This document shows, in pieces, positions 6,288 to 7,936 of a stretch of DNA of 7,936 nt. The notes under the pieces are model-generated. The model was not told the DNA's origin and searched no databases. It saw only the letters and a program-made list of their open reading frames with translations. Numbering within the stretch: the stretch's first letter is position 1; each line of letters starts with the position of its first letter. The DNA is from a virus (lineage: Duplodnaviria > Heunggongvirae > Uroviricota > Caudoviricetes), in IMG/VR virus record IMGVR_UViG_2695420871_000002, positions 1 to 7,936 of that record; one strand, 5' to 3'. The position numbers and the translations under genes were made by a program.

Positions 6288-6498
6288 GAATCACCTTCCA
6301 AGGTCGTTTTGCCTTACGATATTCGTCATAAACTTTGGGGTCGTACTGAAGTTCCCCGCCAGATGCCTCTTGCAGGCGCATCGCGCGACCTTCAGGAACC
6401 AGTTCCCCCCATGCAGCAATGCTTGCCAGCCTAACTCCTGCGGCATTGGCAAGCTTTGTTTTGCTGCCAAAAAACGCTATAGCATCAATTTTCAACAT
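6271..6498 (-). CDS. dicC: DicC-like Cro-type repressor, 75 aa
   Basis: MLKIDAIAFFGSKTKLANAAGVRLAS...EGRAMRLQEASGGELQYDPKVYDEYRK matches E. coli Qin DicC as I recall it. SD AAGGAG 6 nt before the ATG at 6498; divergent from the dicA-like gene. Confidence 0.8.
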   Translation of the reverse strand: MLKIDAIAFFGSKTKLANAAGVRLASIAAWGELVPEGRAMRLQEASGGELQYDPKVYDEYRKAKRPWKVIHENQA

Positions 6499-6505
6499 AT
6501 CGAGC

Positions 6506-6553
6506 TCCTTAGATTTTCCTAAGGAAACTAGATCGTAGAGAAACCTAAGTCAA
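6506..6553 (-). promoter_or_regulatory. PR-like promoter for the dicC-like gene with overlapping operator repeats
   Basis: Minus-strand -35 TTGACT (plus 6548-6553), 17-nt spacer, weak -10 TAGTTT (plus 6525-6530). Inverted repeat TCCTTAG-N6-CTAAGGA at 6506-6525 and CCTAAG at 6544-6549 overlap the promoter. On the + strand, TAGAAT at 6561-6566 sits 8 nt before the dicA ATG with no SD, suggesting a leaderless PRM-like transcript as for lambda cI. Confidence 0.35.
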
Positions 6554-6574
6554 GAAAAATTAGAATTCCCTAAT

Positions 6575-6982
6575 ATGAAAAACGAAACCTTCGGTGCTCG
6601 CCTCTTACATAGGCGTAAAAAATTAAAACTGTCTCAGGCCGCATTAGGTAAGCTGGTCAAAGTGGCTCACGTAACAATTTCTCAATGGGAAAGAGATGAA
6701 ACACAGCCGGCGGGGAAAAGATTATTCGCACTGAGCCAAGCGCTTCAGTGCTCACCGACTTGGCTTCTTTTTGGGGATGAAGATAAACAACCAGGCGAAC
6801 CGATCCCGGATAATCAGCCAGCCATTCTGACAGAAGATCAAAAAGAGTTACTTCAACTGTTCGACGCACTGCCTGAGTCAGAGCAAAAGGCCCTGTTGTC
6901 AGAGATGCGTGCTCGAGTTGAAAATTTCAACAAACTTTTTGAAGAACTACTCAAAGCTCGCAAAAGAAGCGCAAACAAATAA
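6575..6982 (+). CDS. dicA: DicA-like XRE-family HTH repressor (cI analogue), 135 aa
   Basis: LKLSQAALGKLVKVAHVTISQWERDETQPAGKRLFALSQALQCSPTWLLFGDEDKQP...EMRARVENFNKLFEELLKARKR matches E. coli DicA as I recall it, with the same length. Divergent from the dicC-like gene. Confidence 0.85.
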   Translation: MKNETFGARLLHRRKKLKLSQAALGKLVKVAHVTISQWERDETQPAGKRLFALSQALQCSPTWLLFGDEDKQPGEPIPDNQPAILTEDQKELLQLFDALPESEQKALLSEMRARVENFNKLFEELLKARKRSANK

Positions 6983-7054
6983 TCCCCTTTTTTCTCCACA
7001 CCCTGTAATAAAAAGCACAAACTTTCAAACACTTGTGTTTTTTACATCAAAAAA

Positions 7055-7107
7055 CTTAGGTTTTTCTACACAAAAATCTTGACCGCCCACCTTAGGTTAT
7101 TCTAAAT
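7055..7107 (+). promoter_or_regulatory. PL-like promoter flanked by 15-bp direct repeats (putative DicA operators)
   Basis: ACTTAGGTTTTTCTA (7055-7069) and CCTTAGGTTATTCTA (7089-7103) flank -35 TTGACC (7079-7084); -10 candidates CTAAAT/TAAATT at 7102-7108. The CTTAGG core is shared with the dicC/dicA intergenic repeats. Confidence 0.35.
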
Positions 7108-7184
7108 TTCATTCATCAAGACACCGCACGGTGTTCTCAGCAAACAGTTCCGCTACCCCGGCGTTAAGGGGAAATGGGGTCAAC

Positions 7185-7340
7185 ATGAATACTATCGATC
7201 TTGGCAACAACGAATCTCTGGTGTACGGCGTGTTCCCCAACCAGGACGGCACATTCACCGCCATGACGTATACCAAAAGCAAAACGTTTAAAACCGAAGC
7301 TGGCGCACGTCGTTGGTTGGGAAGACATTCAGGTGAGTAA
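7185..7340 (+). CDS. ydfA: YdfA-like small protein (DUF1391-type), 51 aa
   Basis: Track ORF 7131..7340 trimmed to the internal ATG at 7185 (MNTIDLGNNESLVYGVFPNQDGTFTAMTYTKSKTFKTEAGARRWLGRHSGE). Resembles Qin YdfA as recalled, and sits downstream of dicA as in Qin. Confidence 0.6.
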   Translation: MNTIDLGNNESLVYGVFPNQDGTFTAMTYTKSKTFKTEAGARRWLGRHSGE

Positions 7341-7818: not shown

Positions 7819-7922
7819 TTCCTTACTGGTTGTGTGAGAACTTCAGTAAAGATACCACTGAGGTAGCCTGAGTTTAACGGACACTCCTTCCTGAAATAGA
7901 ATGGCATCAGAAGGAGCTAATA

Positions 7923-7936
7923 ATGAGCAGAAAAAC
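7923..7936 (+). CDS. 5' end of a gene truncated by the window edge (MSRK...)
   Basis: AAGGAG at 7910-7915 sits 7 nt before the ATG at 7923; only 4 codons are visible. Confidence 0.25.

Follow-up and report, generated by a model that had tools for sequence, protein, structure and literature searches.

The operator-like repeats between the divergent dicC- and dicA-like genes studied here very probably belong to a bistable immunity switch of a Qin-type lambdoid prophage, in which they would be bound by dimers of the DicA repressor and probably by DicC as well. The window (the whole stretch of 7,936 nucleotides that was analysed) comes from a lambdoid prophage of E. coli or Shigella, and, as judged from sequence, its switch is a variant of the already characterised DicA/DicC switch of the E. 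coli K-12 Qin prophage. The repeated unit is a palindrome of 16 to 20 bp, (C)CTTAG-N6-CTAAG(G), found three times in the 76-bp dicC/dicA spacer (Oc, Om and Oa) and twice at the promoter downstream of dicA (OB2 and OB1). What emerges is a known switch in variant form and no new kind of system.

Genes of the switch

The switch region is 99.6% identical to that of E. coli FDAARGOS_943. The names given to the two divergent genes by an earlier, sequence-only reading were confirmed by Pfam, by alignment with the K-12 proteins (62% identity for DicA, 75% for DicC) and by PDB matches, which identify a short HTH_3 repressor without peptidase domain and a P22-Cro-type protein, respectively. DicC shares 75% to 87% identity with the K-12, BL21 and O157 proteins in the alignment, and its PDB match is the P22 Cro structure 1rzs. 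DicA is 98% identical to an O157:H7 protein, and its N-terminal domain resembles the solved DNA-binding domain of P22 c2 (E 1e-21); Pfam detects only the HTH in its 135 residues, and no S24 peptidase C-terminal domain. The gene dicB itself lies outside the window. A Rem-like gene adjoins hokD, as in Qin.

Table 1. Positions of the genes, promoter elements and palindromes of the switch in the window (a dot marks palindromes, listed without strand).
Feature	Position	Strand	Sequence, description or basis
Rem-like gene	1631-1918	-	95 aa; candidate DicA antirepressor; 68% identity to K-12 Rem
dicC-like gene	6271-6498	-	Cro analogue, 75 aa; Pfam P22_Cro, E 3e-13
dicC Shine-Dalgarno	6505-6510	-	AAGGAG, in left arm of Oc; sequence reading
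Oc	6506-6525 (core 6508-6523)	.	TCCTTAG-ATTTTC-CTAAGGA; perfect 7+7 palindrome
dicCp -10 (predicted)	6525-6530	-	TAGTTT, 17 bp from TTGACT; predicted start G6518
Om	6534-6549	.	CGTAG-AGAAAC-CTAAG; one core mismatch
dicCp -35	6548-6553	-	TTGACT; read from sequence
Oa	6559-6574	.	ATTAG-AATTCC-CTAAT; palindrome with A/T at outer base
dicAp -10	6561-6566	+	TAGAAT; predicted start A6573, 2-nt leader
dicA-like repressor gene	6575-6982	+	135 aa; HTH_3 the sole Pfam domain
AT-rich hairpin	7009-7044	+	12-bp stem and U run; -9.6 kcal/mol, z = -4.5 against shuffles
OB2	7055-7070	.	CTTAG-GTTTTT-CTACA; 8 nt upstream of dicBp -35
dicBp-equivalent promoter	7079-7108	+	TTGACC-18-TAAATT (PL analogue), upstream of ydfA and downstream genes; consensus promoter scan
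OB1	7091-7106	.	CTTAG-GTTATT-CTAAA; between dicBp -35 and -10, overlapping -10
ydfA-like gene	7185-7340	+	First gene of the repressed operon; Pfam DUF1391, E 3.5e-28; annotation of locus L001

Probable operator palindromes

Every string quoted by the sequence-only reading occurs where it was placed (TCCTTAG at 6506-6512, CTAAGGA at 6519-6525, CCTAAG at 6544-6549 and AGTCAA, which is TTGACT on the minus strand, at 6548-6553), and the divergent region does measure 76 bp (6499-6574). The repeats it described are real; however, the set was incomplete, amounting to one and a half of the three spacer operators. The further CCTAAG noticed at the -35 is the right half of the second palindrome, Om, and overlaps the -35 by 2 nt, while Oa and, at the downstream promoter, OB1 and OB2 were missing. 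The first palindrome lies over the dicC Shine-Dalgarno as proposed, but touches the -10 (TAGTTT, 6530-6525) by one base only.

Oc covers about -7 to +13 of dicCp, mainly the predicted +1 (6518) and the AAGGAG (6510-6505), and its half-sites are invariant or nearly so among 23 unique spacers of the C type defined below. Om is located within the dicCp spacer, corresponding to -39 to -24 of dicAp. Oa overlaps the TAGAAT, covering the dicAp -10 and +1 and abutting the ATG. The centres of Oc and Om are separated by 26 bp, and those of Om and Oa by 25 bp. OB2 and OB1 start 36 bp apart, and a distance of 35-36 bp between them is kept in both C-type and G-type loci. At dicBp, no third operator was found even when up to 3 mismatches were accepted in the 10 specified bases.

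With regard to enrichment, the bare hexamer CCTAAG occurs 4 times against 2.6 expected, a count equalled in 51 of 200 shuffles, and is not enriched. The 14-bp core TTAG-N6-CTAA, with at most one mismatch, has eight matches against 2.37 expected, and none of 200 shuffles reached eight. The meaningful unit is the longer palindrome and not the hexamer. Five of the eight core matches fall in the two intergenic regions flanking dicA (76 and 202 bp, 278 bp together), a clustering whose Poisson probability, computed post hoc, is about 3e-8. A repeat finder returned four direct copies of a 16-mer, with a fifth copy as inverted-repeat partner.

Promoters and the dicA transcript

The TAGTTT of dicCp has three of the six consensus bases, and the AGTCAA at its -35 position is kept in nearly all DicA-like loci examined. 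The predicted dicC leader, 20 nt long from G6518, carries the AAGGAG, the GGAG of which ends 6 nt before the ATG. In two viral contigs (L027 and L034), the equivalent of position 6529 reads ACCAG for ACTAG in otherwise identical C-type spacers; this change, which converts the -10 from TAGTTT to TGGTTT with loss of the key -11 A, may represent a promoter-down variant.

No good -35 is recognisable for dicAp. The absence of a Shine-Dalgarno from dicA and the TAGAAT ending 8 nt before its ATG at 6575, both pointed out previously, are borne out by the sequence; neither a GGAG-like Shine-Dalgarno nor an alternative upstream start precedes this ATG, the latter being excluded by an in-frame TAG at 6536-6538. 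The suggestion of a leaderless transcript agrees with what is known of the K-12 homologue: its mRNA belongs to a set of five in E. coli that are classified as leaderless, its start, mapped to 3 nt ahead of the ATG, was verified by RLM-RT-PCR (PMC4681348), and the gene appears in lists of known leaderless genes (PMC8794815). The K-12 -10 (TAGCAT, at -12 to -7) is equally spaced, and from this common geometry the dicA start of the window is predicted at A6573. A near-leaderless dicA mRNA in the window is thus supported by homology to the measured K-12 case. The Reg-Seq paper offers no dicA promoter data for comparison, reporting no active start in the region that it mutagenised. The consensus promoter scan listed only dicBp among the three promoters, so that dicCp and dicAp both rest on K-12 homology.

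The description of this transcript as PRM-type, as in lambda, stands as an analogy only: the dicC and dicA promoters overlap, the repressor has no cleavable C-terminal domain, and the -42-type activation geometry is absent, as the centres of Om and Oc fall at -31.5 and -57.5, respectively, relative to the predicted start at 6573.

Between dicA and OB2, the hairpin of Table 1, with arms AAAAAGCACAAG and CUUGUGUUUUUU, is kept in the O157 copy and absent from K-12. It may be the dicA terminator, insulating dicBp and the dicB operon from readthrough.

The outer operator base and the repressor type

DicA-like loci were collected from Enterobacteriaceae genome contigs (21 loci) and viral contigs (80 loci), giving 50 unique protein/spacer combinations. 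Their layout is conserved, the dicA ATG being preceded by the palindrome at about 67 nt and by the AGTCAA at about 27-32 nt. Among 19 diverse loci compared for layout, a -10-like hexamer (TAGAAT, TAAGAT or TATATT) ends 6-9 nt before the ATG, and none has a Shine-Dalgarno before dicA.

The outer base was compared in 41 unique related loci, 23 with Ser20/Ala22 and 18 with Thr20/Arg22 repressors. All 23 loci of the Ser20-Gln-Ala22 repressors, which are 69-100% identical to that of the window, carry C at the left outer base of Oc (C type); the site reads CTTAG...CTAAG in 22, the remaining one having a degenerate right arm. The Thr20-Gln-Arg22 repressors, which include the K-12, BL21 and Citrobacter types together with Symbiopectobacterium and Rahnella (Oc core with one mismatch), are paired with GTTAG...CTAAC in 18 of 18 loci (G type). 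The correspondence at Oc therefore has zero exceptions in 41 loci. The OB sites mostly share the outer base of Oc, with T or A in a few C-type loci. Less closely related repressors, which differ in helix 3, are accompanied by palindromes of another sequence, for example TTGAG-N4-CTCAA or TAAC-TTTT-GTTA.

Among 27 unique proteins, residues 10, 20, 22 and 75 alone separate the two repressor types, and three of them (10, 20 and 22) lie inside the DNA-binding domain; helix 3 is identical in the BL21-type and window-type repressors. The C-type repressors form one clade, so that the co-variation amounts to a single evolutionary contrast, and the entire C-type spacer is highly conserved, half-sites included, so that conservation alone does not single out the operators. 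Arg22 was rejected as the sole determinant of the outer G, as residues 10 and 20 co-vary equally and the C type is one clade. In lambda cI, the position equivalent to residue 22 faces RNA polymerase and not DNA.

A speculative and rather unlikely extension is that immunity specificity in the DicA family is set outside the recognition helix, with residues 20 and 22, at the start of helix 2, tracking the outer half-site base, while the types have DicC and the Om/Oa half of the spacer in common. If this were true, a Qin-type prophage could, through its DicC, throw the switch of another prophage in the same cell whose immunity type is different; as many as four dicC-like copies occur in E. coli genomes. 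The mildly new point of the present analysis is the clean C/G contrast at the outer base and its link with two or three residues that are not part of the recognition helix. This contrast, with the three residues, offers a simple case of specificity change in prophage repressors.

The BL21-type spacer (L003 1687-1766, aligned with 6499-6574 of the window) is a mosaic, with a GTTAG-type Oc in its dicC-proximal half and a dicA-proximal half (CCTAAGTCAAGAAAAATTAGAATTACCTAA) nearly identical to the window type. Such a structure points to recombination within the operators or to a DicC-binding module common to the two types.

A proposed mechanism and its alternatives

In the switch that we propose, DicA on Oc would block the dicC promoter and, on OB1 and OB2, the promoter that drives the ydfA...dicB operon. 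The strong dicCp, when occupied by polymerase, would make the weak dicAp inaccessible; because the two promoters overlap, with predicted starts about 55 bp apart, silencing of dicCp would free dicAp and result in positive autoregulation. Alternatively, DicA might act by direct contact from Oc, centred near -57. We infer both these modes of activation and the assignment of proteins to individual sites in the window variant. The dicA gene would be transcribed from TAGAAT with a leader of 0-3 nt and translated without a Shine-Dalgarno. Following inactivation of DicA, DicC would be made and, probably reading the shared TTAG-N6-CTAA core, would occupy Oa and Om over the dicAp -10 and +1 and lock the opposite state. 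Shut-off of dicAp by DicC at these sites fits the genetics of O157:H7 and K-12. A Rem homologue is encoded in the window, and DicA offers no domain for cleavage; induction by an antirepressor is therefore likely, a role that the Rem-like protein itself would likely fill.

A more restricted assignment, possible but doubtful, limits binding of DicA at physiological levels to Oc, OB1 and OB2, leaving Om and Oa as sites of DicC only or as mere promoter sequence, with one DicA operator in the spacer and not the three of lambda. With 26 and 25 bp from centre to centre, the sites are spaced much like the lambda OR operators. Om matches the core at 9 of 10 positions, much above the K-12 Om, and its left half (CGTAG or TGTAG) is conserved in C-type loci; its right half, however, is fixed by the dicCp -35, CTAAG being followed by TCAA and its AG being part of AGTCAA. 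The left half of Oa is likewise fixed by the dicAp -10, and its outer base is A/T, not C/G. The stretch CCTAAGTCAAGAAAAATTAGAATT(A/C)CCTAA is also present in loci of the BL21 type, in which DicA goes with GTTAG operators, and the part of DicC that reads DNA hardly differs between repressor types. In K-12, assays of each site alone showed binding of DicA to Oc and not to Om or Oa (PMC3441716), and occupancy of all three sites by DicA is for this reason no more than putative; cooperative binding would, however, be invisible in assays of single sites.

It is very improbable that the Oc palindrome acts as an RNA hairpin of the dicC leader, sequestering the Shine-Dalgarno for translational control, and not as a DNA operator. 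A transcript from 6530 or upstream would form a 6-7 bp stem including the AAGGAG (-9.6 kcal/mol, z about -2), whereas the 30-nt leader examined from the predicted start, G6518, is unstructured: this start, 11 nt from the A of TAGTTT as in the K-12 start mapped by 5'RACE (PMC3441716), falls in the loop, so that the 5' arm would not be transcribed. The hairpin needs a start upstream of 6525 and is rejected on this predicted geometry. Furthermore, palindromes of this type are present at four further positions, among them promoter DNA that is not transcribed, the outer base co-varies with the repressor protein, and K-12 Oc works as a DNA site after transfer to a foreign promoter (PMC3441716).

Chance matches in AT-rich intergenic DNA, in line with the insignificant hexamer count and a spacer G+C of only 34%, are a next to untenable explanation given a 14-bp core count never reached by shuffling, five sites within 278 bp, and site positions kept across genera and co-varying with the repressor.

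Other features of the window

Downstream of dicBp, the transcribed leader preceding ydfA (7116-7184, plus strand) is strongly conserved across genera, with the pattern CATCAAG ACACC-GCAC-GGTGT ... GTTCCGCTA CCCC-GGCGTTAA-GGGG. In relatives from Enterobacter and Citrobacter, its first hairpin has changes that appear to be compensatory, and the leader of more distant relatives contains a GAAAGA-loop hairpin, which we take to resemble lambda boxB. The leader may be a nut-like antitermination site. RNAalifold, applied to ten sequences of it, retained a 3-pair stem only, with weak covariation. Rfam gave no match in this leader, nor in or near the switch, the only hit in the window being sok.

This sok antisense RNA (2318-2493, RF01794, 117 bits) is paired with a hokD-type toxin gene (2168-2323, minus strand), which lies within a 70-aa ORF (2168-2380). 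A homologue of QueH, an epoxyqueuosine reductase (2551-3237, minus strand), so annotated in the nearest genome, is an unusual cargo at this place.

Two genes carry lesions compared with FDAARGOS_943. The ydaT-like (CII-like) gene (5866-6287, minus strand) lacks 1 nt next to 6249 relative to the intact 140-aa gene; this loss splits it into ORFs 6111-6287 and 5866-6171, and it is probably a pseudogene. The frameshifted region overlaps the 3' end of dicC, and the DicC C-terminus differs from that of other DicC proteins. The replication-initiator-like gene with a poly-Glu tract (4989-5788, minus strand) has lost 10 nt, gained 24 nt through expansion of a TCTTCC repeat and gained 3 nt by insertion, with these indels at 5315, 5337-5360 and 5471-5473. 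Loss of the 10 nt is expected to put the gene out of frame, in agreement with its two overlapping ORFs (5120-5788 and 4989-5258). Such lesions suggest a prophage in decay.

At either end of the window (1-99 and 7859-7936), similarity to FDAARGOS_943 is lost, and in FDAARGOS_943 an IS1 lies near the left end; the prophage segment thus has flanks that vary by strain.

Comparison with known systems

The immC region of P22 (c2, Cro and OR; PDB 1adr, 2r1j and 1rzs) resembles the present switch in its proteins: QAALGK and ISQWER are common to c2 and the window DicA, and DicC belongs to the P22 Cro fold family. P22 operators are likewise palindromic, with an A/T-rich central stretch free of protein contact; they are 18 bp long with four uncontacted central bp (PMC4267663), whereas the conserved G...C of the window half-sites are 6 bp apart. 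P22 c2 has 216 aa and a RecA-cleavable C-terminal domain (PMC10448788), in contrast to the 135-aa DicA with its short, unrelated C-terminal part.

With lambda, the switch shares a repressor gene divergent from a Cro gene, a spacing of about 2.4 helical turns between its three operators, an operator set at a PL-like promoter, bistability and, as predicted for the window, a leaderless repressor mRNA, a property of the prophage repressors lambda cI, K-12 dicA, racR and ymfK. The operators nonetheless have no sequence homology with those of lambda, and the promoters of the window overlap, their starts being separated by about 55 bp, compared with 82 bp in lambda. The repressor dimer at OR2 is near -42 in lambda, while the activating site of K-12, Oc, is near -57. 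DicA is also without an S24 peptidase domain, and its inactivation would proceed through an antirepressor, in contrast to the RecA-stimulated cleavage of the lambda repressor.

The closest characterised counterpart is K-12 Qin, the operators of which were first named in work of 1986 according to PMC3441716 (its references 16 and 28), and which was studied later in PMC3441716 and PMC10448788. Gene order is the same (ydaT-like, dicC, dicA and ydfA), a Rem homologue is present in the window, and TTAG-N6-CTAA palindromes occupy equal positions, the right end of Oc being 52 nt from the dicA ATG in both. The promoters correspond as well: dicCp is TTGACT-17-TAGTTT in the window and TTGACT-17-TATCTT in K-12, the distance from the dicA -10 (TAGAAT and TAGCAT, respectively) to the ATG is equal, and the downstream promoter has an operator pair about 36 bp apart, with TTGACC-18-TAAATT in the window against TTGACC-17-TAATCT at K-12 dicBp. 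The window has two operators at this promoter, whereas three are reported for K-12. Further differences concern the spacer (76 bp against 83 bp), the dicA leader (2 nt, predicted, against 3 nt), the repressor (Ser20/Ala22 against Thr20/Arg22) and the operators themselves. K-12 Oc is TTGTTAGTCATAACTAACAA, of which the window Oc is the positional equivalent; TCCTTAG...CTAAGGA in the window stands against TTGTTAG...CTAACAA in K-12, and the K-12-type TGTTAG-N6-CTAACA is not matched, the window having CCTTAG-N6-CTAAGG at Oc and CTTAG at OB1 and OB2. The window Om is far closer to the consensus than K-12 Om, and the K-12 equivalent of Oa is TTTAG-CATTAG-CTAAC. As its operator sequence differs, the window switch would represent a different specificity class within the Qin family, probably heteroimmune to K-12 Qin.

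In K-12, DicA on Oc represses dicC and enables dicA, and single-base mutations in Oc abolish DicA binding in vivo and permit cloning of the region (PMC3441716). DicA also represses dicBp, which is derepressed by the antirepressor Rem and which, provided that DicC is present, switches on spontaneously in some 1% of cells; DicA has no Ala-Gly site (PMC10448788).

Finally, the PPompW prophages of O157:H7 carry the variant of the window, annotated dicA/dicC. Oc and Om are identical, as are the half-sites of Oa. The two copies differ by a single base within the Oa spacer and at the dicC Shine-Dalgarno, and also by the frameshifts that the window copy carries in the two neighbouring genes. The primers of a published O157:H7 study (PMC6915034), including those for dicA, match the window exactly and take in 42 nt of the spacer. 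In that study, DicC overexpression lowered dicA and raised dicB expression, whereas DicA overexpression lowered dicB; these genetics established that dicA and dicC repress each other, as well as control of dicB, with operators and transcription starts outside its scope (PMC6915034). Most of a 1-kb query is contained in 751 of 5426 complete E. coli genomes, and the present analysis provides a predicted operator map for the DicA/DicC variant of O157:H7 and of at least 14% of complete E. coli genomes.
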